Assembly (NCBI GenBank): GCA_030141605.1
Contig: JAQGDQ010000133.1
Location: 186,001 to 250,000, forward strand
Origin: Tubiluchus corallicola
Lineage: Eukaryota; Animalia; Priapulida
Length of the DNA stretch: 64,000 nucleotides
Reading direction: 5' to 3'
The notes below the pieces were generated by a model. It saw only the letters and a list, made by a program, of their open reading frames with translations. It was not told the DNA's origin and ran no database searches. Numbering within the stretch: position 1 is the first letter of the stretch; the number at the start of each line of letters is the position of its first letter. A program made the position numbers and the translations under genes. Shown here one piece after another: positions 18,801 to 61,753 of the stretch.

Positions 18801-20384
18801 TGATAGTTAAAGAAATCGCAGCTTAAACATAATGTCATAAGGCTTAAAAACCTTCCACATATTGTTGTGCAGTTAAGCCGACCAATTAACTAAATTACAT
18901 TTTTCGATACTTTTCGATTTTTCAACACTTACATATGGTGGAACACCCATTTGGGACTAATATTAATAAATCTTTTCTTTTCTGGTTCTAATCCGTTGAC
19001 CAATGATTTTTATTTTTAGTACGTATTCAAAGTGTAAAATTTGTATGTTATTATCGAGTTTATTCCTACTTATTAATACTAAGTGATCATGCAGTATGCA
19101 CAAAATTCATAATATTTTATTGCTGATTTTACTCTGTCTTGTTTAACTAAATTAACCCGATAAAAATTCTCACAGTTTTGGCTATTTTCAAATTGCTCAA
19201 AATCTTTCAAGTTGATTTTTTACTTTATTTACCGAGTTGTTTGTCACCTAAGGGTGTATAAGAATGTATGTGATACGGTGCAAAGCCCATGTTGTTTTAT
19301 TTTCGGTAACGACCATCGTCATATTTGTCAGACAGCTTTGTGTAGGAAGCTGCTATGGCATTCCAGTACTCATTAGTAAGCACGTGCAAACAAAATCACC
19401 AAGTTAGTTACTTCCGTGAGAACACGGGTATAAAACAAATGCGTAGATTGTCGCCAGTCAAATAACTGTTCTGTAAAAACTATTTTCGCAAGACCCTAAT
19501 TACCCTGTTTAAGATTACTGCGTGTATAACTGTATCTTATTGATTACAGTAAATACAGTTTGACGGCTTCGGGAATGGTAAAACCACCTGAGGTGTGTGG
19601 TCATTGTATACCGGGAAGCACGTCTGTACTCTATAAAGGTTTGAATATGTATAATGAACAAGCAGTAATTGTTTCTCTGTTTTCATTAATATTTTCTTAG
19701 TTTAATATTCTTAGAAAATTCAGATGTTGAAGCTAAAATTACTGTGAAGTGTATTAAGAAGTAACCGATGGCTTGTTACACTTGTACATCTGAAAAATGA
19801 AAAAAATAGGAAAATGCTACATAAAATATGAGCTATGGTAGGATTACTGTGGGGATAAAATATTTTAGTTACTTTTCCCTCTGCCAAGGAAGTTATGCTT
19901 CAACGCTGTTTCTTTGTTTCTTTGTTGTATAGCAGTAAGCCTTTCACGCTCAACAGATTTTCACGAAACTTTGCAGAGAAGGTGTAAAGAGGGGACAAGA
20001 AAGATGCATTTTGATGCAGATTCCTGCATGGAAGGGGAAGGGCGAAAAGGCGAATGCGCTTTGACAAAGTGGGCGTTTATCGTCCGTTCTTTTTTTGCAA
20101 AACTTGGTCAACGCCGCGTACAAAAAGCTTTTTCGAAGGACTTCGTGTAGGTCTTAGAGGGAGTGTTATAGCTCTTCAGGAAAAGGAGGACTTGGCTACA
20201 AGATAGGGTAATTCTTTTTTATTATGTCCGCTAGGACAAACAACTACGAGCTAGTTTCAGATTCTATTTCGAGAAATTCTCGCTTGGAAAACTTTACTAT
20301 TACTTTTGCTTACACATGTATATAGTCTTAAAAGCTGACTTAATATGTAAATGCGTGTATCTATCGCTCTATTACCCGCGCCAA

Positions 20385-21026: not shown

Positions 21027-21368
21027 GTTCGACATGGCATGGTGGCAGTGACAGATGGCAAAGGGAAACGACAAGCGGTGCGCCTTCAATTAGCTGGAAG
21101 TCATCTGACGATACAGAAGGAGGAGCTAGTCTATGCTATTCCCACGGAAATTCGAGACAACACACCGAGGGACAGCAAGGTTAGTAGGATTCAAAAGTGT
21201 TTTTTCTTTGATTAGATTTGCTAACAATAAAATTAACAGTTTTATCAGTGATCTAGTAACTTATTGAATGATTGACTGACTTACTGACTGATTCTCTGTT
21301 TGGCATCCTGCCTCATGGGAGAGAGAGTGAGAGAGAGAGAAAGAGAGAGAGAGGGAGAGAGGAGAGGA

Positions 21369-21422
<54 letters not shown>

Positions 21423-24400
21423 GAATATTAAATTTATTTTCTCATAACGACTAACTCTGTTTGAATAATGAGCTTTCTGAAGGAAAGTTTGATTTTTGCT
21501 TGAATTGAGTAAACAAAAGTCGAGGATCCACCTTTTTTTGAATAATAGGTGAGATTGTCCTGTTTTTATTAATATAGGGATTTTGAGTGACATTCTTGTG
21601 TCAAAAGTTGCAGGGAGTGTTGCTATTGTACTGAACGATTGTTCCTTATGTAATTCATGTAAGTGGCTTCTCATAATTATAGAGAAAACAAGGATTTGCA
21701 CAAATTTTAACAGTAATTAATAATGTGGAGGCAACTGGATGCCTTTGCAATCTTTTCTCACATGACTATCTCATTTTGTCTGAATTTTGCTGCTTCGTTC
21801 AGTTTTATTGAGCTCGAGAGATTTTACCGTTTGTTATTTCACACTCTGAGTCACTCAGTTTCCTCAGCAGTTTGGCGCCTAGGTGAATGAGTCACGCAGT
21901 GTCTGTGTCCAGGTAGATTATTGATGTGAAGAATTACCTCGGCGATGCGTTTAGGATGCTGGTATTACCGGGATCACAATAACGGCATCCTCATCCAGCA
22001 TATAACTTCAATGGAAATCATTTTTGCAATCGAGTGTTTACTTTATTGTGGAAAAGTACATGCATGAATATTGAATGATCACCTTGATCTGTTTAACTTT
22101 TAGGTACTGTCCCGGGGATGTATGAATTAGGGTTCTCCAAGTTTTGATAAAACATGTTGCATTGCGAAGCTTTGGGTTAGCTCTGTGGTCCTGTTGCTCC
22201 ATTAAGCGAATTTCAGTAATCGACATACTCTAATTTCAGTAATCGGCAGTTTAACTACTCAACAGATAAGGTAATTTAAAGTAATATGAAATATGAAAGA
22301 GCATATTGTAGCTTGCTACATTAGCTATTTAAGTCGTTCAAATTGAATTACCATTGAACATAATACTCGTTTTCATGACGCTCACTTTGATGACCGACAA
22401 ATGACTAACCGACCGGCCCACTTTAATTCACTTTACTCACTTGCTCACGTTTCCTACGTAGTTCGCGTGTCACGATGTTAGCGTACTCAATTTGAGCAGC
22501 AGATTAGTCGATATTTGACCATCAACTTACTAAATTTAAGTAGATTTTCATTTTGCCTACTTGACAGAGTATTTCTTAATATAAATCTCTCCAAGGAAGG
22601 GCAGGGACTGCTCCTAGAACTTTCAATGTAGGTCAAGGCAGTCTTTTGGCAGACAAAAACCGATAAATATGGGTTCTTTTGGCTGTTGTTACATTAGAAT
22701 ATTAAATCTTATGAGGAGATGAGTTGAATGACGTCCAGCGAATCGAGGTCACGTGGAGGTTACAGCTGCCAAAAGCAACTAAAGAGTAATGCATCGTACC
22801 AAAGCGCTAAAATGTGCTGATGGGTACTGAATTTTACGGTTTAGTTTTTTAACACCAGGTGCCCTCACTACTCATGCATGTTTGTGACTGCGTTACTGTG
22901 TTAAATCAGCATTTAAGTGGTTGGCGCTTCAGAATACGCCCAATTTTCTTATAGCGCATCTGTTTGTGGTGTGTCAGCGAGTGTGCAGCAGCCAAATACC
23001 CCAGCTTTTGTAGAAATTAAGCGACGGGAAACTAAGGATAAGCCGCCCTTTGTTTAACGATGTGTACATTTGTACAGAGAGCGTTACTTAGGTTCCTAAG
23101 AACCATTTCTTGTATTCCTGTAGTAGGTGTGTAGAATGGTGAGGTACATAAAACTGAAGGAATTTATGTGGACCCGTATCAGCTCATATTAGTAACGGCT
23201 TCGTAGCGGTTAACCTAGATTCCACAGGCTATTTGCATGGCTTCTTTCTAAAGATAATGAAAAGCAGATGTGATCTATAGCTGCGTAAGAACCAAGCAAC
23301 GCGATTGAAATCCGATTAGCAAATTCTTTGTTTAACAGCGTTTTTAGTTGTCCTTCTGTCAAATAGGTAGCGGTTCAATTCATTTTCGCTTTATCGTTTT
23401 TGGTTTATTCTGCAAAGGAGAGCCAAATCTATTGAAAATTGCACCGAAATACATCACTTCAATCTGTCGCTTTGTCATTCTCTCGTTTTAATTGCTTGCC
23501 TACATCTAAATTAATTACTGTGGTTAAAAATTAGGTCATCTCACCTATCTAAATATCCGTATAAATAACGGAGTAACTTCAGCATTGTAGAATCATTAAG
23601 CACAATCTGCTGAAATGTTTTTTCTGCAAATTAACTTTTTATTTAATTGTCAGTAGTAGTTTGAAGGTTTTTGTTGAAAGCAAGGGCTAAGGCAATTTAT
23701 AGATTCTAGATAATAATGCAGAATATCTAAAAATATGAAAATTGCAAAAAACTGCTACGTCCAGCGTCCAGCGTTTTAATTACGCACATTATAAGAGGAA
23801 CCACGTTTGACTTGATTTTAAGTTTTCCTGTTTACTGTGAAAACATAGTGTAGCGCAAAGTAAGCAAACTGTTTTGCACTCAATGTAAAAAGGTATTTAT
23901 AACTGATGACACGCAGACATCATGAAATTCAACACTTTACTAACTGGCTCTTGGTCATTCTGAGAATGTTAAAAGTCAAATACATGTGGGCATTTTGCGT
24001 CCAACTTACTTTGGTGATTTTTGACGCTTCATGTGTAAGAACATTTGCTTTTTTATCCGTCATTTCAGCCATACAGCCAAAGATAAATAAACAGCTTTTT
24101 ATTTTCCGATTTTTGGATTTGTTAGGGCGGGCACATTGCCAATTTTTACCCTTGCTGAAACACCACGATGCCTATTTATTTGATAAAGAGAACTTTCAGC
24201 GTTTTTACTCGAATGTAACAGAGTGAGTTGATAAATGGCAATTATTAATGCTTGTTTGTTGAGGGAGGTCGTAGACACATGTAAACGTTATTGAGACCCT
24301 CGGTCACGCACTTCACTGTCTCACTGCGAGATTCCGGTACAGTCACAACCATCTGGGGACAGCAGTGACTACTATATGATCATTCTGTTGGCGAGTCCTG

Positions 24401-27400
24401 CAAGTCAAGCTTCCCAGTTGTTGGCAAAAGCAAGCCGTGAATAAATGTTGTTTGAAAAGGCAACTGCAGAGCTTGTTATGTATTCATATTGTCATTACAT
24501 TTTTAGAAATACAGTACTTATAAACTTATACAGCAGATATAAATGGGTCAATGGATGATTTTTATCCAAATACAAATACTTCGGGAGCGCTCGTCAGTAA
24601 CGTAAGTATTTCGTAAAAAATTGATGTCAAGTTATTCGAGAATAGATTTTTAGAAATCTTGGTTCTGTGAATATTGTGAGCACCCCTAACTTTGTCTGTC
24701 GATGTTAGTGTTTCTCACTTAGAATAGGTAGTTTTATGTTCGAGACTTGGTACTATAATAAAAACGAATTTCTTAGCACTTTTAATAGATGTTCATTATG
24801 AACAAATATTGAAAGCTTGCAGATACTTATGTGCAACGAGTTAAGAATAAGCAGCAGTCTAAAAAATTTATTGAATTCAATTTTTACATTTTCAAGCTTT
24901 CGCTGCCTAATTACTAACAATTTGATAAATTTGATCTCCCCACAAAATATTCTTTTGCTCAAATTATTGTACAGCACTATTAGCAAGATCTATTTCAAAT
25001 CTGCAGTTTTATGATTATTGTATTCTTCACGCTTAAGCGGGTGCGGGTTTACAAAGTTTGAATGCTTGGGTTGCCAGGCTGCAGTCACAACCATCTTTTC
25101 CTATCACACATGGGATCCAGAAAGGTAGAGCTTTTCCTGAAGGTATTTTTGTGCATTTACACGGCTTACTTCGAATATACGTCTGAAACAAAATAATGCA
25201 TATTTTCAGAGTAATATGGATGACAAGCACATCTTGATAGTTGTGCGTGTTTGTGTCACATTTTCCGTTTTAACTTTCAAACCACAAAGCGACACCTTTC
25301 TCCGACACCTTCTCTTCTGGAGATTATTCACAGAAACAGAAGACTGCGCAAGAAAAGTGTCGCTCATGATGTAAACTCATACTATTTTTCACGATTGGGT
25401 TAAAGCCTTTAAAAACATTATCGCAAAGCTATAGCATTTGTCTAATATGCCACCAGAGTAGACAGACCTAGGAACCGATAACTGCAATTTCAAACGGACA
25501 GAGTTTTTGAAACTCCTCTAAAAATCGATCAACATTGGGCTGTTAATTCAGTAATAGCTTGTAGAGACGTTTTAATTTTATTTGATGTGATGTTAAAATC
25601 TAACGTGTAGCTCCGTTCCTTTGTTAATTGACTAATAACAAAAACTGGTTAATATAATTAAAATTTTTTGTATATAAGGGCGGTTAAATCTAAAAGAAAT
25701 CGTTGGCTCTGTCGGGTTTTGTTTTTTTTCGCCAAAAAATTCGCGAATTGCAAGCTTTTGGTAATCTTCAAATGGGGGAGGGGCACTTTCTCTTGCACGA
25801 GGGTCTCTCACAAAATTTCTAGATCTACCAGGAACAATCTAGGAAAACAAAGTTAAATACATTACCTCTCCACAAATTTTCTGGCCATTCCATGAAAAAC
25901 AGGTACATTCTGTCTTGAAGGCCCACTCACTGGGCGTGCAATCGTCTTCACACTTTACCTGGGCTGGACTGAAGCAGGCAGTCTCCAGGTTAGGCTTATT
26001 AGGCCTACTCGTAACAAAAACCTACAATAAATGTGAGTCTTAAGACTTGGCAACTTGGGAGGCGTTACACAATATAACAATTTAAGTAAAAATCAGATTA
26101 ATCAATGATAATTAGTTAATGCATCATCAATTGATCATAATCACGCATTTTCTTCATATAGTTATCGTCAGACATATCGCAGCTATTATACCACCGCGCA
26201 ATTGAATTTAACAATTTCATTATCATTGCCATCACCATCATCGCGGTAGTTATCGTTATCATCACCATAATATGATCACTAGTATCATGATCGCTGTTAT
26301 CGTCATCGTCATCATCATTATCATCGCTGTTATATCTATTGTTAAACACTAATAGTATAATTTGTAATAATGCTGATCATAGTTAAAGTTATATAACGTG
26401 TTTAATGTACCAGAAGTGAAAACAAAACACAAACGCCCAGCTTCATGATTCTGCTGATCAGAGGCTTGTTGTATGTGTGATGCAAATAATAATAGTAACC
26501 TGGATATTCCAGTTTCATTGCTTTTATACTGGCGTGCTTTTTTTTTACCAATATTTAACAAGGAATGCGGTTTGATATGATTTAATAAAATTCAATCTGA
26601 CAAGAAGATGTTTTGTTAAGGGTGGGGTATGGCTCAAACTCGATGTGAATATCTTCTCTTCTTTAGCAATATGCACTATAAAGCCATTAAGTAGTTAAAA
26701 TTGGAGATTGAAAAACAGGATTATGAAAATTTCGTGATGTGGTTAAACACTGGTGAAAAAATGCAAACCCCGTCGATGACGATGGTCTTTGAAAGCTTGT
26801 ATAGATGTAATTCAAGGTGACATTGAAAACTGATAAACAAACTGTCAAACAGTCATTCGATATTTGACGCAATTTTGTCTGAATGTTGCTTTGATCGCTA
26901 GATGTAAAACAATAGTCTGCATAAATTAACCTACCCGAAAAAGGTAGACAAGGGTAAAAATTTAACTTTTTAAAAGATAGTCTTTTGAAGGTAATAAGAA
27001 TAGAAAGCCTAAACTATATTTTGAAACATATTACCTGAAAACTCGCGATGTCAATGAAAAGTAGAATGTAGTTGGTAGCAAACGAAAGCCGCAGGTCAAT
27101 AGGTGGTATAAAAATAATTTTCTGACCACGTAGTCGGTAGGTACAGAAATTTCTACGTTCAAAGATGTTCAGATAACGTCTGTTCAAACGTTTCATGCTA
27201 TACTGGGTGCCCCTAAAATATTACATGATTTCAAGTTCAATAACTTTGTTAATTCAAATAAACAGAGACTTGGAGCACATTATCAATTGTCTGCTAATGA
27301 AATAAACTTTAAAAGCTCAAGTGTTACTGCTTTGTCACAGCAAAAAAATAAATAAATCAGAACGAAGAAACTAATTGTCGTCTTTGTAATCCATTGAGCT

Positions 27401-30400
27401 AGTCATTCCCTAGTAGCCGATTTTCTCAAACGGAAGACCATAGAAGCAAATTTAGGAAAGATGAACTTTTGTGAAAAAATGAAAGGATCAAGAAAAGATG
27501 GTAAGTGGTAGCATACGATAAGCAAAGTCTTTGAAGCCTCTTAGGAATATTTCAGTTGCCAAAGGCTTCGAAATACATAAAAATAATAATCGTCAATTTT
27601 AAGCTAAGGAGTTATGCAGCCCCCTTTTTAACTGTATAGTAGCTTTCTTAGAAGGTATAAAAAACTTTTTGTATGCGCCCATAACCAAACTAGTTTTTTG
27701 CACCTCTATGTATGGAGGATCTAAATTTCCCTTTTTTGCACAGGGAGCTTACTGCTAGTAATGCCCTTCCCGTACTGATCTTATTATTAGTGGGTTTTCA
27801 GTTGTTAATTCAAGCTGTTAATCATTGTGCCGCTTAATGATGTTATAATTAGCAGCCCGTTTCTTTGTTAAATGAGGTGATCCAAAGAAAGTTTACATAC
27901 CCCAGTTTTTGGATATTGAATTGTGATAAACCAGAATACTTAACACTTTACATGTAATGAACAATTAACCAAATTTTATTGTTAATTGATTGAAAGAGGA
28001 AGAGCCTGAAAAACTGTGGGTCAGGAGAACTCGCATTTTTAGGGCTTTCCAACTAAGTAACACTGTAAGTTAATTATTGATTACATAGAAAGCCTTAGAT
28101 TTTTTTATCTGATCTATTACGCTTCAGTATCTGGAAAAATTATCATTAGTTGTGAGTTGAGCGCAGCTAATTTGATTATTACGCTCTTCATTGTAATTTG
28201 TAACATAAATCAAGCTCTTCTTGCGCCTCCTGGTTTTTTTGTTGCACTCAATATTTAAAATTATAAAAATTTTGCAGTTTGCAGTAGCAAATAAAGCACT
28301 ACGCTGTAATTGTGCATATGATAAGTAAGTCTTCTACTAAACTGATTAAAGTTTTCTTGTTTATTCTGCACTGTAGATATGGCAACTTTGCAAGCTGTTT
28401 TTTTGGTTAAAGAAGGAAAAGAGAATGTATGATGATGCTCTTGGTTCACTCTCTTAAGAATGAACGTTTCGTTACGAATGTAAATACATACTTTTAGTGA
28501 AGTTTATTGCCTAACACGCTTTTCAGGGTAGTTTACTATGTTACTGATGCGTAGGAATGATATAGTTGTTGGTATTTTAGTTCTAACTGACCTTAAATAT
28601 AATGCTGCCCGAGCTAGAACATCTGCTTTTTATACGTATGTGAGCTTTCCTGTAACTTCAGCCAGTCAGCAAAAAACAAATAAACAGCTTCTCATTTTCT
28701 GGGACGATTTTCTGAATTTGTTTGGAGGGGCACTTTGCCAACTCTTATTTTTGCTGAAATGCCACAGAAGCTAAGTATTTGTTAAAGAAAAGATTTTTAC
28801 GTTAAATTTAATTTTTTACAGAATGAATTGGCGCTATGAATTTTGTTACATTTGTTACACTGATATGCTGTATTGATCAGTTAGTCCTACAGTGAATCTC
28901 CTGCCTAGTTGTAGGTTTGAAGGTGTGTAATTATTAGAAGTATCTAGAAACAGTAGTTGCAAATGAGTGGTGTATCGACAGGGTCTGCTATTAACACACT
29001 GAACTACCTCAGTAGCTGATCTGTCAGCATGGATCGTTTGCCTGGATAGGATAATACTGAATAATTACCAGACATCGTTGGGGGGGGGGGAGATGTATAT
29101 ACATCTGAATTTTGTGATACCTGTATTACTTTGTTGTCTTATTTTAAAAGATTATCATTGTTAGTGAGATAGATTCGGGTACAGCCACAGCCATCTGCAT
29201 TGAGTAAGCCTGCCCTTGAGTGCTTTCTCTCAGCTTGCAGGGTGCTAAATTGTATAAGGAAAGATGCTTTCCAGTTTTCACTTTTGAAACAGTGATCCTG
29301 CTGGCGATACACAAAGAGGTGGCTATGGCCTGGCCTGACACAACCAAGGAGTTAACGAATATTCCATGAAAAAGGTCAACTGCTGTGTGTGGTGACCCTT
29401 GGTCACAGTCGTAGGGTTTTTAAGGTCCTTTGCTTCCACGACTTTTTGAGCACAGCTTTCCACAGGTTTGGTTCCTATATGTTCCCAGTATGCTTCCCAA
29501 CCTGTTTTGACTTTACGTAACTGATTGATTTACACGTGTGCCATCACTGGTACGTTGTTATTTGTTCGCACATTTGAGTATAAATAAATTTTTACTTACT
29601 TGCTTATTTACTTACTTAGTTGCCAATTTAAAAAAATACACGTATTTTTCATGTGGTAAACGATTTGTGTCTGGTACACTGATAAAACGGATCGAGTCTA
29701 CACTTTAATAGATGTTCATTGTGAGTGAAATATTTGAAGCGTACAAGTGTTTGTGTCTAACAAGTTAAGAAATTCGTTCTTGTCAGGAAATGAAAAACGC
29801 AATCTGAGGTGTGGTATCAATTTATTAAATTCAAATTTTATGTTTTTATGTTCTTGCTTCATAACTAATAATAATTATGTATGACTCTTATTAGTAATTA
29901 AATTAACGACAATCATACAATGTCCTTTTTTAAGTTGTTGTACACTACCATTGACAAGGTCTACACTAAATCTGTAGGTATATAATTAGACATTACAGCG
30001 TTTGTATTACTTATGGGTTACAAGGTTTATATGCGTAGGGTGCCATGCTGCAGTCGCAAACACCTTCTTCCATCAAACATGGGAGAAAGAAAGGAATAAC
30101 TTGTGGACCTTGTGGAGTAGCTTTTTTGCACGTACACGGCTTATTTCGTGAATATATCTGAAAAAAATTCGTATTTTCACTATAGTATGGAGGGTAGGCA
30201 TATTTTCACCGTAGTATAACGACAATCATACAATGTCCTTTTTTAAGTTGTTGTACACTACCATTGACAAGGTCTACACTAAATCTGTAGGTATATAATT
30301 AGACATTACAGCGTTTGTATTACTTATGGGTTACAAGGTTTATATGCGTAGTAATATTGTGCGCGCGTTTTCACAGCAGTATGGATGACAGGCATATTTT

Positions 30401-33400
30401 TAAACAGATACGAATAGTACTTGCTAGTTAAACTTTTTCTGCGCCAGCTTTTGGTCCTTTGGTTAAGCGTCTCGACTACAGTGTTCTGCGTCAGCTCCTG
30501 GCCGTAAGGTTATTTGCAAAAAGAGCAAACGGCGCATGAAAAGTACTGCAATCCATACTACTTCACGCTACTTGTTACAGTTGACACATAAAAATCTAAA
30601 ATCGACACAAATTTTCGCAACTAAATTTACCTTTCTGCTTAATTAAACAAATTCTTTTTTGGGGGGCTTTAATTTTTATTTGAAATTCGGAGACTGACTC
30701 AGCTATAGAATAGAACCATGTATCCTGATTAGGCGGAGCTCTTTTCTTAATCGTTGAATGACTAGAATAAGGGCAAGTAAGAAACTGAAAGACTGGCTCT
30801 AGCAAAAGTTTTTATTTTTTTTCCACAAAAAATTCGTAATCTAAGTGAATTATAAACTTTTATAGGGTGACTCACTACCTTTTTATGGTCGCGTCCAGTT
30901 TTGCATAGTTCACAAACTTATAAAGAACAGGCTAATACATTTTCTGTCACTTCTGAAAACACATTAAAGATATTACCTCTACACATTTTTCTGTTCCTTT
31001 AAATAGACCACACGCGCATTCTGAGTGGAAAGGCCAGTCAGTAAGCTGTTTATATGGTGTGCAGCTTTCTTCACAAGTTATCCCGAACACCCCCAGTGTG
31101 ATGTCGCTCAGACAAATTGCTTGATCTAGGTTACTCTTCACAACAATCTGCAATAATCAAGACTTCTAATATCTGACATGTCGAAGACACTGCAGTAGTA
31201 TGACGAAGTCAATAAAAATCAAATTAGTTAAGTATAATCAAATTATTTTAAATTATTAATTAATAATAGTTAATTAATACACAGTCACCATCAACATTGA
31301 TCAAACGCTATCATCGCAGTTATTGTTATTGACATCATAATTCATTTTACTGCCATTGAATTAAATCTACTAAAGGCATTTCTGGCACAATAATAGTGAA
31401 GCTGATTGCCATCCAATTCGTTATCATCATCGTCATCGTCGTAGCCATCGTCATCATAATCGCATCGTCGTCGCCATCACCATCATCAGCGTCATTGCCA
31501 TCTTGCATCATCATTCAGATTTCGGAAGTGAATGAATTCTGCTGAAATGCTAATCAAAGTTAAAGTTTAGCAATATGTTTAACGTACCAGAAGTGAAAAT
31601 AAAACACAAACACCCAGCTTCATGATTCTGCAGATCAGAGGCTTGTTGTATGCGTGATGTAAACGATAATAGTAACCTGGATATTCCAGTTTCATTGCTT
31701 TTATACTGGCGTGAATTTTTTATCAAACGATATTTAACAAGGAATGCAGCTGAGCATAATTTAGTATGATTCAATCTGACAAGAAGATGACTTGCTTCGC
31801 GCGGATCTGATTCTGCAATCTGATGTAATATCTTCACATTTATTATACCAATATGTACTGTAAAGTTATTAAGTAATTATAATAAGAAATGTTTAGTAAA
31901 AAACACATGGGTGTTTGTTTACCATAGGAATTTTGTACAGGTTTCGACGGTGGGGGAATGTGCAATGCAGTAAGTAAATAGCCGTTGATGATAATGGTTT
32001 ATGGGTATTTGAAGTTTTTCACAAATGTTGCGATAGATTTGATTCAAGGTGACTTTGAAAAATAGCAAACAATCATTCATACGATACTTGATGTAATTCT
32101 AGAATTTACAAATTCTTAATAACAAGAAAACATATCAGTAGTTACAAACATCCCACAACAAAAGAAGTTTTCTGTACTCTTTTGTTGTCTATAACCTTTT
32201 TTTATTCACGTTTAAACTGCACTGAATCCAGTTAAAAAAGTCACATGAAAAAAACGCACAGGAAAAAAGAAATAACTTTAACCATAACCCCAACCCTAAC
32301 CCTAACATTAACCCTGACCCCTAACCCTACCCAAAATTAATTCTGACTTTTTCCTAAGACTTTTTACCTAGAAAAATTTGAGATTTTTCCGCGAATATTT
32401 TTACCGGTCACCATTGCACTATAACAGTCATCAGCATTGCTGCATTTGTTGTCTTATATTTATAGGTACTGGTTACATATTGAGCCTTTTGAAAAATTAA
32501 GTAGACAAAAGCAAAGTTCTTAACGCAGTTTTTCAAAATATATTGTAATAGAACAGCAGATAAAAAGTATTCGCTTGTAACATGTCGCTTAAAACCTTAC
32601 GATGAAACTGGTTAAAATTGCAAGTTTATTCGACATAAAAGGTCACTGGAAGGACATAGATGGCAAACAAAACCGCAGGTCATTGGATGGCAATACGAAG
32701 ATATTTTTATAATTTACTGACCCCTGTTGTGTTCATCGGGAAACTTTAACGCTCAATTGTAGAGATATGGATATAGACATAGGTGCATGTAGATGAGGGC
32801 TCGGTCAGTTTGTAACTCTGGTAAATTTTGAGCATTTTGTACAGTGGCTAATACAGTCCGAATGGTTACCCACTGTAAAACATGTAAGTAACTGACACTT
32901 GTCAGTCGTGAATTGTCTTTTCAAACTTTGGGAATAAAAAGTTTGTTAACTGTACGAGTCACTTAATCAGTCGGTAAATTGTGCACTGAATATAGATTCA
33001 AATTTCTCAAAATGTGAATTTCTTGAAAGAAGTAGTCCAAGTTTCCCAGACCGTGTAACAGCAATGTAAGACAATTCACTTGAACATTAGATTGGTACAT
33101 TTGAATGTTAAGTAAACTAGTTTGAATATAGAAGCTTTGTAGTCTAAGTTTCGTAGAAGACGATAACGAACTTATAAAGACGCAGTTACTCCGCTGCGTT
33201 CAGGTTGTTTGACCGTCAAAGGCAATTAGCTTCAAAAATCAAAGTAAAACCGACAGCTGACTGGAATTTTTATCGCCATCAAACTTGAACGTGACGGTTA
33301 GTCTCCAAGATAATGTTTGAAAACATTGCTCGAAATTACAAGCATAGGGCAGTTGAGTAATGTAAGAAGTGTAAGTACAGACCTCCTACATCTAGGATGT

Positions 33401-36400
33401 AAGACCAGCGCTAGCGTCGCAGATCTAGGAGAACCCATACGACAAAACTTTATTCATCATCGTCATTTCGTTATTGTTAGGCATCCAGTTTTCCACTTTT
33501 CAATTCTTATTAACTCGCAAGCACAGAGAGCAGGATACCACAGGGGCCTTGATGAAAGTGGCTTGGTGAACGGCGACCTCGGTCAAAGCATCGAAGACAT
33601 TGGACACCGGTCAGTTTTTACATTGCCATTCAGCTGCTCTTAGGGCTTTGGTGCGACATGCACATATTTTGGAAACGGCAAGGACTCGTATAAGTTATAA
33701 TTTGTCCACACGGGCAAAAATTAAAAAGTATGTAGTGAATATTCTCATATGTTATTAGTGTCAATATATTGTTTTGTGCATAAGACTGTTTTATATACCA
33801 ATGAAGATTTAAAATCAGTAAAACCTACTACCCTATTCTTGTTTTTATTATTCTTATTCTGTACTCTGGAAACCACACAATAGAGTCCCACGTGAAATAG
33901 GTTCTCAATAGTGTAATATCGCACACCGAACGCGCAGGGTAGACAGGGTAGACTGGGAAGAAAACTTGAACAGAGACCTCTGTTAAAGGGTTATTGACAC
34001 TGGACATAAGGTGCAAACACGGCTACGGCGTTACGCTCGCGGATTTAATTTCGGGATTTTGAGAGTAAGGTTAGTGCTGATTTCCTGAATCCGGATAATT
34101 AATTACTAGAACCTTGGATTTGCCATTATAAAATAGGAATTATTCATCTTGCATACATTTTGCTTCTACGTAGTACGCAAATTGAGCTTGGTAATCGTAT
34201 TACTGCTTTCAAAAACTCTCTAGAACAGTGGTTCCCAAAGTAGGGGTAAATTACCCCCCGGGGGTAATATGGTTTTTTTGGGGGGTAACGGGCACCCCTC
34301 TGAAAATTTTTAAAACTTCGCTCGGAATGCATTTTACGTAGTTTTCTTCTTGAAGAGACTGCCTCCGGCAGGCAACACTGTGTCATGGGGTCCATCACAT
34401 AAATAATTTTGCTTGCTTGTGGCATATACGTGTGTTTACTTTTTGAGTTGGAGAAGTAGTACTAGGTGTGGGGTAATGGACACGACCGGGTTTCCCGATT
34501 TGGGTAACGGCCCGAGAAAGTTTGGGAACCACTGCTCTAGAAGAACAAGTCATATATCTGTATTGTTTTGTTTTGTGTTAGTTTGTAAGAGATGGTACGA
34601 AAACGCAAAACTAATTAAAGTAACTGATGTTCATTTAAAAGTAGGCTAAATTATCACATTAAGTTTCTTTTTTGAAACTGTAAAACATTTCTGTAAGTGA
34701 AGCTTGTGTGACGTGTATTTTGTAGGGATGAGTATTTTCTACCAGAAAACGAATTCGAATCTAACCAAATTTCAGTATTTCGAATCCGAATCCAATTCGA
34801 ATTGAGTTTGAGAGATCTTTGAACAAGTTTTCGAACCACTAGTAAAAAGTAGACTTACAAAGATCATGCATATTACGTGATTTTGTTCTGCAGTAAAACC
34901 ACTATTAGCTAGTTAAAAAATTTTGCACAGAAACTGCAGCTAAATTTTGCTAATTGCATGCTGTTTCAAACATTTTAATGATAAAAACGCATGTGGCTGA
35001 AGTGCTGAATTATTCGAATCTATATTTTAGGCTCGAATCGAATTCGATTGTTCGATGTTCACCCCTAGTACTTTGTTGATTTTTAGCTTTTACAAAAGTC
35101 CCAGGTATAGAAATTCTCTCCCGGATCTCGGGATTGGGTAAGCTCGGGACTGAGATCTGGTTTTCTGTTGCAGGAAAGAGACGTTTCATTAAAACGCGGA
35201 ATAAATGGAGAGTTGGGACTGAGTATAAAGGTATAATTTATTCGAGCGATTTTGTTTATTTCTTTTTTAAAGTAGTTTGTGATTTCAACATTTTAGAATC
35301 TCAAAATTTATTGCATTCTTAATTTTTGCCAGATTGCATTTCATGTTTGTTGAGTGAATTTTATTGATTTGTGAATAATTTTGCATTGATGCATGCATGT
35401 AAAATCAATAACAGATGACCGAAATACGTTGTATTATCGGAATTGCCTTTAATTAGCTTTTGTATGCTTGAAGATTTCATAGAAACAACAAGTTAAGTAT
35501 TGTTGAATTCGACAAAACTTTATAATTCGACGGTACTAATACGTTAAATGTCCCACAATAAAAATTCTTTTCAGCCCTTTTCAGCTTTTCAACGTTTCAG
35601 CCCTACACTAATAGGCATCGTCTGGCACTGCTATTATGATAGCTACCAGATTTTTTTGTAGTGGCATAGTTAATATTACGATTATTGTTCTTGTTATTAA
35701 GAATTTTTTGAGCCCAAGTTTACGTAACGTTGTTGATTTTATTAACGCTTATTAGAAATTTATTCAGCTGGAGCTCAACTCTTAATCCAATAAAACCTTC
35801 AAAAGTGCAAGGCTTTGTTATTACTATTTGGTAACTTGCATTTCAGTTCCTTTAATTTTAATCAAATGTATCTTTTTTCTTTTCATAATTTGCCCAAACC
35901 GGCTTTGAGTTTAAATCCATTAGCCAAAATGGGCATCAAAGAATTAAACTATTTTATTATTCTATTCGTCAGATCATGTAGTTATTTTACTCCGCCCGAA
36001 CGTGACTCTCTTCTTCTTCTAAATATTTTTCAGGGAGGCGCTGAGCACAATCTGCCAATCCTGATATCCAAGATCTACAAAGATAGCGGAGGTGAGCTTC
36101 ATACAATACATTTTATAAGTATTCTGAACGGTTCCGCCGAGTTTAAATTGACTACAGAAAGCTGCTCGCTTTCATCAATTTCGGTTTAATTTCAGTGCAG
36201 AAAATTAAATTTTCCATGGGAGTTGAGCCCAGCGTTTTATTAGCCAGTAAATGAAATCTTCGTCCTTCGTTTTCTAGCTGTAAGATGTTGGTTTAATTTT
36301 CTTGCAAAGGTTTATTTTTATTCAATTATTGGGACTTACTGTAAATTGGTTTATTTTTCAGCTGCCAAATGCGGAAAATTGCATGTGGGCGATGCAATAA

Positions 36401-36617: not shown

Positions 36618-39600
36618 TTCATCACTGCCAACTTTATTTAGTTTTCACCATCATCATGTCTTCATCATCGCCAACTTTATTTAGCTTTCATCATCATCAT
36701 CATCATCATCATCCTCTGCTTCTCATTTACAAGTACTGCTGTTAGTACTGTCATTACTCATTACCAACACAATTGCCAGTTTAAACATTAACAACACAAT
36801 TTAGCATCATTATTAATATCCTCATTTCACACCACATCTCTTTTCGTCATCATTTTTTTATCAATTTTTCATTTGAATTGCTTTCTCATTCCTTTTTGTG
36901 TTTTTCTTCTTGATTAATGCTGATAACCATGTAACAATGTTATGCAGAGTTTGACTATGTGAGGTAAAAGAGTGGCAATACTTTTTCAATTTCAATTCAT
37001 TTAATTTATTTTGCGAAATAAACAAACATTGACTTTGTACATCAAAATACAGAGCATGATAAGATTAATACAGTACATTGCAAGTTATACTTGATGCTAG
37101 AGACTCAGAAGTAAGTATTGATAACACATTGCTAGTAGTTAAACCTACAATAATGTGATACCTAAATTTAATTAATGTAATGAAAACGTGTAGAAGATTT
37201 GGAGCTATGTGTTGTTATAAGTGAGAAAGAATTAAGACAATACTAGTGAGAAAACCTTAAATGTTGTTGTTTATGCAAACTGGTCTGTGTGTTCAGGTTT
37301 ATAAACCAACAAAAATCTTTAATTGAATTGAAGTGACGTTTTTTTAGATATTTACATCCATATAACATACAATAAATTATACACACATAACTTGCAAAAC
37401 TGCTACTGAATGTAAATAACAATAAACAGTATGACTGGTTATTGTTTGTGTATAACATGTAACACAAAATAAAGAAACCACAAATGTTATTTTTTTATAT
37501 AGATAAACGGTCATTACATAGAGAATTGTACCCATGACGCTGCAGTTGAACTTCTACGGAGAGCAGGCAACCAAATTATGTTGACTGTCAGACATTATAA
37601 AGTAGCTGCTCCATTTCTTGCCACAAAACCGGACACCCCACCACATAGCTATTGCAATGAAGGCAGTTGCTTTGACTCGGGGTCAAAGTCAAAGGTAAGT
37701 CTGCAGGTCATGGTCATGCAAGGTAGGTCTGCAAATGTAGTGGTCAATGTCAAGTGTAGGTTTCTAAGTCTTCTGTAACTGCTTGTGCTTTTACAACTAC
37801 TTTGCTATAGTCAATGAAGAAACAATATTTTCGTTGAAGAAATTTTGAAGAAGACAATAGTCATTAAAGAAGCATTTTAGTTTCATTCCGTTGTAAGATG
37901 TTTCACCAGTTGCATCAGTTCTCTATATGCTTCTTATATAGCTAACTTGTCAACTTAACAAACTGAAGCTCCTTTCTGGTTTTTTTATGGTTTAAATCTT
38001 AGCAGAGAGAATTTTTAAGCTTCCTGATTTCTTTTGCTTATGTGCAATTTCAATACAACACTTTCTTATTAATGTCATTGCTGTTTTTAAGAAATCATAC
38101 TATTAGAAAATGCTCAGAAGTAGATTTAGAATTCTTACCTGCATTTCATAAAAACTTGTGATGTGATGTTTTAGTTTGATTTGTTTTTTACATTTTAACG
38201 CTAATATCAAATCTCTGGATAATTTTCCAGTGTTCAAGTCATTCATGTAAGCAGTTAATGCCAAAGCTTGAAAAGCACTGGACAGATATAATCAATATCC
38301 ACTTGCTGATGGCGTATGTCACCAGATACGTGATGGGAACTGACAAACTAAGGTACTAAATTACTGATTTTGGTGCTGATGTTCATAATTGCAATAATTT
38401 TTAATAAAATGTGTTTTTTTGGTAGAATTGATCAGGACACTTCTAGTTTTACCTAATATGGAAAAATTACAAAACGAAAATGAATTAGCCGAGTGGTCAT
38501 GGTGTGTGCTTAGTGAGCAAAGTTAAACGATGCTTACATTGGTTAGTAAATGAATGGATGGTCATAGAGAAAATAACTTCTAGTTTTACCTAATGTGCAA
38601 AAATTACAAGACATAAGAGGATTAGCCGAGTGGTCATCGTGTGTGCTTAGTGAGCGAAGTTAAACGATGCTTACATTGGTTAGTAAATGAATGGATGATC
38701 ATAGAGAAAATAACTTGTGGAAAATTTTACTGTTTCATCTATCATATTTTCCCCAGTGATTTGCCTCATTGAGGGAAGATATTTGCACATTCACTTATAG
38801 TTAAAATGCCTGTGTCGGTTCAGTGTCTCACACAGAGGATTATCAGTGACGAGGCAGCTTCCAGTTTGCTGCAACCATCTGCATATGTAGGCCCCACTGT
38901 TCAAATGCTGACTTCCAGCCTGCCGAGTGCCAAACTGTTTAAAAATCCCTTAAGGACACAGCAGCCTTTGTTGGTTCAGTACAAATATACATAGGTGGCA
39001 CTACTAAGTAGTTGTTGCAAACGTTTTCCCTAGGTATATTATCTAAAAAATTTTATACACGCCTTACAAGAAACAAGATGAAGTATGTCATAGACTAATG
39101 CATCATAAAAAAGGGGATTCTTATAAAATATTTTGATTTGCTAAGTCTTTTAGTATTTTTTGTAGACCGGATGCCTTTGAAGTATTAGCAATGAATTGCC
39201 AAAGTTCTGGGGTTGTTCACTGTGATGACGTCTCTGTGCTTTCTGATTGGGTGAAGCACATAGCAAACAATATAACAGCTGCTAACATTCAGCACGTAAG
39301 TGTAGATAAGAACTTAATACTGAATTTTAATATTTAATTTAAATTACATTTAATTTTAACTTGCTTGTTTTCAGTAACTGTGTGGTTCTGTTTTAAGCTG
39401 TCAAGTGCAAGCCTTCCTTTTTGAATGATGGCTACTGTATCATTACACACATTTTTTGCAGATAAAAATGCTGAACCGTGCCCTACCTCCAGGAGAACAG
39501 GTAAACATTAATGCTTTTATGGTGTGAACATGAGTCGCTTAAAGCCTTTAAAGCACAGCAGTGTTTGTTAGTTGTGTATTAGTTTTTATTAGTTTTTGTA

Positions 39601-47844: not shown

Positions 47845-61753
<13,909 letters not shown>

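Follow-up and report, generated by a model that had tools for sequence, protein, structure and literature searches.

The mussel MgCRP-I family, an orphan group of secreted cysteine-rich invertebrate proteins, combines a conserved leader and a variable mature part with invariant cysteines and has been likened to antimicrobial peptides and neurotoxins, though its synthetic peptides were neither cytotoxic, insecticidal nor antimicrobial (PMC4558851, in the part drawn on here). Ligands of the ErbB receptors are marked by a splice site that falls between Cys4 and Cys5 and by an adjoining transmembrane segment (PMC1618406, in part), and thrombospondin type-1 repeats (TSRs) by the motifs WxxWxxW, CSVTCG or CSxxCG, and RxRxR (PMC5446238, in part). 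In Drosophila, nearly 10% of genes belong to nested structures, 71% of the nested genes lie on the opposite strand, and nested genes are fast-evolving, narrowly expressed and enriched for testis expression (PMC3814207, in part). Described here are two predicted genes, A and B, on the minus strand of a 64,000-nucleotide (nt) stretch of the priapulid Tubiluchus corallicola (GCA_030141605.1, contig JAQGDQ010000133.1, positions 186,001 to 250,000; hereafter the window, in which all positions are counted). They form a tandem pair encoding small proteins with twelve mature cysteines, and they lie in what is likely an intron of a gamma-syntrophin-like gene. On present evidence they are a familiar kind of gene in an apparently unnamed family with an unmatched cysteine framework, and neither a new mechanism nor the opening of a long-standing question is indicated.

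Gene models and predicted proteins

Both are three-exon models, predicting proteins of 117 (A) and 113 (B) amino acids. At matching places they show a TATA box, an exon resembling a signal-peptide exon, a pair of exons with six cysteines apiece, a stop and an AATAAA; each of the four introns has GT-AG ends and lies in phase 0. An earlier sequence-only reading had drawn both models, and every coordinate that it gave was confirmed, together with the introns, TATA boxes, stops and AATAAA signals. The gene A TATA box, TATAAAAG, lies at 31698-31705, 82 nt 5' of the ATG. It is followed on the minus strand by coding exon 1 (31588-31623; 12 codons, most of the predicted signal peptide), exon 2 (30977-31147; 57 codons, six cysteines, the predicted cleavage site, net acidic) and the coding part of exon 3 (30011-30157; 48 codons and a TAA stop, with six cysteines and a basic net charge), with a candidate polyadenylation signal AATAAA at 29821-29826, in a place matching that of gene B. 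Gene B has the same TATAAAAG at 26521-26528, also 82 nt 5' of its ATG, then coding exon 1 at 26411-26446 (12 residues identical to those of gene A, with two synonymous changes), exon 2 at 25866-26021 (52 codons, with six cysteines at spacings of 7,3,10,1,8), the coding part of exon 3 at 25033-25182 (49 codons and a TAA stop, with six cysteines at spacings of 1,14,6,1,9 and a basic net charge) and a candidate AATAAA at 24867-24872, all on the minus strand. In both genes this signal stands about 160-185 nt 3' of the stop. For exon 2, other acceptors that lie upstream and in frame (31189, 31165, 31162 and 26045) lead into stops, as read by eye. TATAAAA with an ATG after it and then 12 codons of hydrophobic character occurs at five places in the 64 kb (both strands), two of them being genes A and B.

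Neither copy has a stop, a frameshift or a lost splice site. In a neutral simulation with the mature exons of gene B as stand-in ancestor and substitutions only (60,000 runs in total), both reading frames and all 12 cysteines were kept in 1 of 20,000 runs at a divergence of 0.25 and in none of 20,000 at either 0.37 or 0.66. Because neutral drift almost never keeps both frames and the 12 cysteines, both models very likely represent real genes.

Each predicted protein has one leader cysteine and twelve mature cysteines, six per mature exon, and the mature spacing (A/B) is that of the sequence-only reading: 12/7,3,14/10,1,8,9,1,16/14,6,1,9. Exon 2 of gene A taken by itself is spaced 12,3,14,1,8, and exon 3 of the two genes 1,14/16,6,1,9. 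The sole strong hydrophobic run is N-terminal (11-residue Kyte-Doolittle mean 3.2-3.4, with none above 1.9 past residue 20); the proteins are probably secreted, and the small-residue rule would place signal peptide cleavage after about residue 17. The calculated isoelectric point of the mature product is 5.0 for A and 8.5 for B, and in both genes the charge is split between an acidic exon 2 and a basic exon 3. Both paralogs have retained, in exon 3, an aromatic loop flanked by prolines, P-F-[FW]-[LI]-P-C; in both, one tryptophan stands five residues N-terminal to a cysteine, and R-x-K-P-C follows the exon 2/3 junction. A comparison of exon 2 with exon 3 as an internal repeat gave no support (probability 0.1%). 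Single-exon AlphaFold models were predicted with low confidence (pLDDT 51.5 and 54.6); that of exon 2 has a terminal beta-hairpin at 40-51 and no helix.

Both genes share several further features around their exons. An ATG on the minus strand, 10 nt after the start of the TATA box (31695 in A, 26518 in B), is in frame with the main ATG and gives 24 open codons in both genes, and most of the five A/B differences in this stretch alter residues. Because it should precede the TATA-driven start site and because most differences are residue-changing, this upstream ATG is probably non-coding; if an upstream promoter were used, an N-terminally extended form of the protein would be made. Intron 2 of both genes has an AATAAA at matching places (30680 and 25582, minus strand), and read-through of the exon 2 donor meets a stop after 8-9 codons in A and B, which together make a one-module isoform possible; chance occurrences of AATAAA are frequent at the local AT content. 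On the minus strand 5' of the TATA boxes, two blocks of promoter sequence, 21 and 18 nt long, are conserved between the genes (31700-31800 and 26525-26620) and are candidate transcription-factor sites; in gene A conserved blocks reach upstream to about 31880. Intron 1 of both genes holds a degenerate GAT/ATC microsatellite (31400-31490 and 26200-26330) that predates the duplication.

Duplication and divergence

The two genes lie in a colinear tandem duplication in which a unit at about 24064-26874 matches one at about 28657-32098. From the TATA box to the ATG they are identical at 77 of 82 nt and in exon 1 at 34 of 36, the changes there being synonymous only, and the identity falls to 84 of 141 aligned nt in exon 2 and 100 of 138 in exon 3, so that DNA identity is 94% at the 5' end and 60-72% in the mature exons. 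The very high identity of the 5' 120 nt could also have come from gene conversion. In blocks of 60 nt the mature exons (0.65-0.77) are within the range of the introns (0.57-0.85). The 93 mature codon pairs give a pN of 0.31 and a pS of 0.44, the bootstrap interval for their difference running from -0.26 to +0.01, and dN/dS is about 0.4 in exon 2 and about 0.9 in exon 3 (dN 0.34, dS 0.37). The purifying selection claimed by the sequence-only reading is thus borne out by the simulation for the reading frame and the cysteines, and does not carry over to the mature sequence as a whole, for which the interval includes zero. Judged from the two sequences, the scaffold does not vary while the loops change almost freely, selection being shown for frame and cysteines only.

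A search for further copies by tblastn with the four mature exons found just genes A and B in the 64-kb window. One candidate third copy at 24200-24560 was treated as chance: it matches exon 3 of gene B over 15 nt, which was reached in 1 of 300 shuffles, the match frame holds stops, and the test was one of eight comparisons on a region chosen after a tblastn row at E 0.25. GC-richer stretches of the syntrophin intron at 24280-24470 and 33300-33700 have no convincing reading frame. Contigs of sequencing run X1, which behaves as DNA and may come from the source sample, cover 23 of the 30 bins of 26340-31390. A second run, X2, presumably RNA, gave no contig in this region and a single one elsewhere, on a repeat, which speaks neither for nor against expression.

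Intron 2 of gene A carries, at 30217-30351 on the minus strand, an additional 135-nt copy, without any mismatch, of the sequence that closes exon 3 and opens the 3' untranslated region. Its source is 29904-30038; the copy includes a stop codon and is very recent. It has neither an acceptor AG directly in front of it nor an AATAAA. Before it the pre-acceptor intron element stands once more (30368-30400), in a version nearer to that of gene B than to gene A's working copy. One contig of run X1 reads without differences from 29904 to 30246, which takes it 30 nt into the second copy, and its depth is about half that of the flanks. This lends borderline support to the duplicate being real and perhaps heterozygous.

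Family searches and possible roles

All family searches were run per exon and would have overlooked any domain that extends across the exon 2/3 junction. Single-exon Pfam scans found no family for three of the four exons, the fourth giving one spurious row below cutoff (Utp21, E 0.034). Among the PDB sequences there were no matches for both exon profiles or for both exon 2 peptides, and three chance-level rows for each exon 3 peptide. HMMER with the exon 2 profile against 1.84 billion cluster representatives, run without a positive control, returned nothing at E 0.001, and a word-based protein search with the exon 3 profile returned three candidates, none at E 1. Controls for the latter failed: the window's ENaC gave 781 candidates and a syntrophin exon gave a single candidate, none of which scored. 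Since this search also missed the window's own ENaC and syntrophin, blank family searches are weak evidence. Metagenome contigs gave 312 and 595 pattern matches with none confirmed, the ESM Atlas a single row, at 0.75, with no match that could be used, and Rfam no match. The check by AlphaFold and Foldseek proposed in the sequence-only reading could be carried out on single exons and proved uninformative; for both of the poor models Foldseek found no PDB match at E 0.001, an absence that shows nothing. With these low-confidence models the viral fold library gave no match to exon 2 and the VIA fold search a best Z of 2.0 or none. A title- and abstract-level literature search found no description of the framework or the locus and did not find the N-terminal heptapeptide. 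The earlier statement that no family is recognised thus stands for the per-exon searches, none of which gave a significant match. A and B may be a lineage-restricted gene pair.

The explanation that we tentatively prefer, while holding it somewhat short of probable, is that A and B are secreted proteins, each a disulfide scaffold of two modules, whose binding targets belong to other organisms, the paralogs having diverged in specificity. A shared TATA promoter would drive both genes, which are likely active, in one secretory cell type, and the products, proteins of about 11 kDa with up to six disulfides, would have a defensive, protease-inhibitor or toxin-like role. Each phase-0 exon would fold as its own three-disulfide module, for which the division of the cysteines, six and six over two phase-0 exons, counts. 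The basic second module could present a binding surface through the P-F-[FW]-[LI]-P-C loop, and the divergence of A and B would have led to different targets. A further-reaching claim, that A and B are the first members of a so far undescribed family of animal secreted effectors, whose 12 cysteines would hold a new fold of two modules, the first acidic and the second basic with a hydrophobic loop, both binding foreign targets, we regard as doubtful. If it were true, a poorly sampled invertebrate lineage would have yielded a new peptide scaffold; were the genes expressed and the fold new, they would provide both an added scaffold and a testable pair of paralogs of opposite charge. Disulfide frameworks without a match are a source of new peptide scaffolds, and annotation easily misses small, multi-exon, secreted cysteine-rich genes within introns.

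Several points weigh against a role in binding foreign targets. Typical antimicrobial peptides are cationic, while the mature product of gene A is acidic. The split into two modules comes from the exon layout only, the structural models being of low confidence. In the comparison of two sequences dN/dS is nowhere above 1, and diversifying selection is therefore not shown. Only two copies are seen in the 64-kb window, and a large family of near-identical members is not indicated, run X1 having 13 contigs on 26340-31390 at 80% likeness. Nor is function fixed by the sequence pattern alone, because MgCRP-I has the same pattern and its peptides are inactive (PMC4558851, in part).

The EGFR-ligand pattern CX7CX4-5CX10CXCX8C (PMC8657471, in part) is matched by gene B exon 2 in four of five loop lengths, one residue short, which raises the somewhat unlikely alternative that A and B are divergent EGF-like double modules acting within the animal, as a signalling ligand, a ligand trap, or a matrix or adhesive component. 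The six cysteines of exon 2 in both genes end in C-x-C-x8-C, as in the EGF module of ErbB ligands, and indeed both modules of both genes end in C-x-C-x8/9-C, but loop 2 has three residues, loops 1 and 3 are longer in gene A (hence its 12,3,14,1,8), the glycine/aromatic pattern is shifted, and no exon of A or B has the ErbB-ligand spacing. The terminal beta-hairpin of the low-confidence exon 2 model would suit such a module, as would G-x-F-G-x-x-C-x3-C and C-x4-G-x-C-x-C in gene A, which may resemble laminin/MEGF-type EGF repeats; EGF_1-like and EGF_2-like patterns match neither protein, and Pfam EGF families gave nothing for all four exons at E up to 10. Both ErbB-ligand marks, the splice site between Cys4 and Cys5 and the transmembrane segment (PMC1618406, in part), are lacking, each six-cysteine block lying in one exon, and quick change of the loops is a poor fit to a conserved self-receptor. 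Variable loops on a fixed scaffold would fit equally well with reproductive secretions (gamete-surface, pheromone or seminal proteins) diverging through mate or gamete recognition, and the fast evolution and the narrow, testis-enriched expression of nested Drosophila genes (PMC3814207, in part) point the same way; this statistic comes from a fly, no feature of the sequence points to the gonad, and we consider a reproductive role unlikely.

Pseudogene status, with one or both copies recently silenced and gene A perhaps impaired by the duplication in its intron 2, is quite improbable. The mature exons are little more conserved than the introns, and the very recent 135-nt duplicate brings a stop codon into that intron, but the duplicate has no adjoining acceptor or AATAAA, both copies are intact, the promoter blocks are conserved, and neutral retention of frames and cysteines has a chance of about 1/20,000 or less. 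Least probable, and indeed hardly to be expected, is that the mature chain is one divergent TSR laid across the exon 2/3 junction. Such a resemblance had been suggested by the sequence-only reading, and A and B are like TSRs in the lone tryptophan five residues before a cysteine and in the R-x-K-x-C stretch (R-x-K-P-C) past the junction, in both paralogs; yet WxxW, CSxxCG and RxRxC (the TSR features of PMC5446238, in part) are all absent from both proteins, the cysteines number twelve rather than six, and CG is not kept in gene A, so that the suggestion is not upheld.

Likely host intron, neighbours and described systems

The gene pair is placed on the opposite strand within an intron of about 14 kb (21180-35173) between in-frame plus-strand host exons. 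Downstream of the pair, the exon at 35174-35230 begins the syntrophin PDZ domain, the PDZ exon at 37503 finds its best match in gamma-2-syntrophin when compared with solved structures (E 5e-5), and other exons on the plus strand also read as syntrophin. The upstream exon at 21027-21179 (plus strand), likely from the N-terminal part of syntrophin, joins 35174-35230 in phase 0; a Pfam scan of it gave no match, and it appears to resemble the syntrophin N-terminus. Of the antisense nesting described in the sequence-only reading, the downstream side is supported by the PDZ exon, and nesting in a gamma-syntrophin-like intron is likely, not proven, because the upstream host exon is placed by apparent resemblance and frame continuity. 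Syntrophin would probably be merely a landing site. The title- and abstract-level search found no description of a nested gene in a syntrophin intron. Like the opposite-strand nested animal genes described in PMC3814207 (in part), A and B are short, fast-evolving, intron-containing duplicates in a long intron of a conserved host, from which they differ by the particular host alone; such nesting is common and for that reason adds little novelty.

Elsewhere in the window, an ENaC/degenerin open reading frame at 149-1150 on the minus strand runs for 333 uninterrupted codons (Pfam ASC, E 7e-29). It aligns to positions 2-335 of the 455 in the Pfam model and closes with a stop, so it may be truncated or have further exons beyond the window. 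A multi-exon C2H2 zinc-finger gene, Fez/Gfi-like, lies at 47845-59490 on the minus strand, and its N-terminal F-S-V-D-G-L-L motif resembles an eh1 repressor motif. High-copy repeats in the DNA run, with a summed contig depth of up to about 1,700, lie at 34264-35591 and 19656-20319, and the repeat near 35000 is also matched by a contig of run X2. Two tandem 137-nt copies, 92% alike, are found at 38439-38712 in a syntrophin intron.

Among disulfide-rich peptides, the C-C-C-CxC-C order also fits knottins. The knottin-type cyclotide cycloviolacin O2 shares with gene B exon 3 a C-x6-C-x-C preceded by W-I-P, a match at chance level (phmmer E 0.47) that exon 3 of gene A does not show; cyclotides are cyclic peptides made by plants. 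In CS-alpha-beta defensins a CxxxC on a helix is bonded to a CxC on a strand; A and B contain CxxxC and CxC, the low-confidence exon 2 model has no helix, and the defensin gamma-core GxC, in the form G-x-C-x3..9-C, matches neither protein; the sole VIA row in that test is a plant defensin at noise level (Z 2.0, root-mean-square deviation 2.7, 41 residues aligned). Possible resemblances to Bowman-Birk, Kazal, pacifastin and DSL motifs are partial or confined to one paralog. With MgCRP-I, A and B have in common the pattern of leader, mature part and cysteines and the duplicated genes, and multi-module precursors exist in MgCRP-I as well (PMC4558851, in part). Compared by description, the cysteines of MgCRP-I form a C-C-CC-C-C array, its propeptide carries a dibasic site, its introns are in phases 1 and 2, and a single exon holds all its modules (same source, in part), whereas A and B have neither CC nor a propeptide, and are built with phase-0 introns and one six-cysteine block to each exon.

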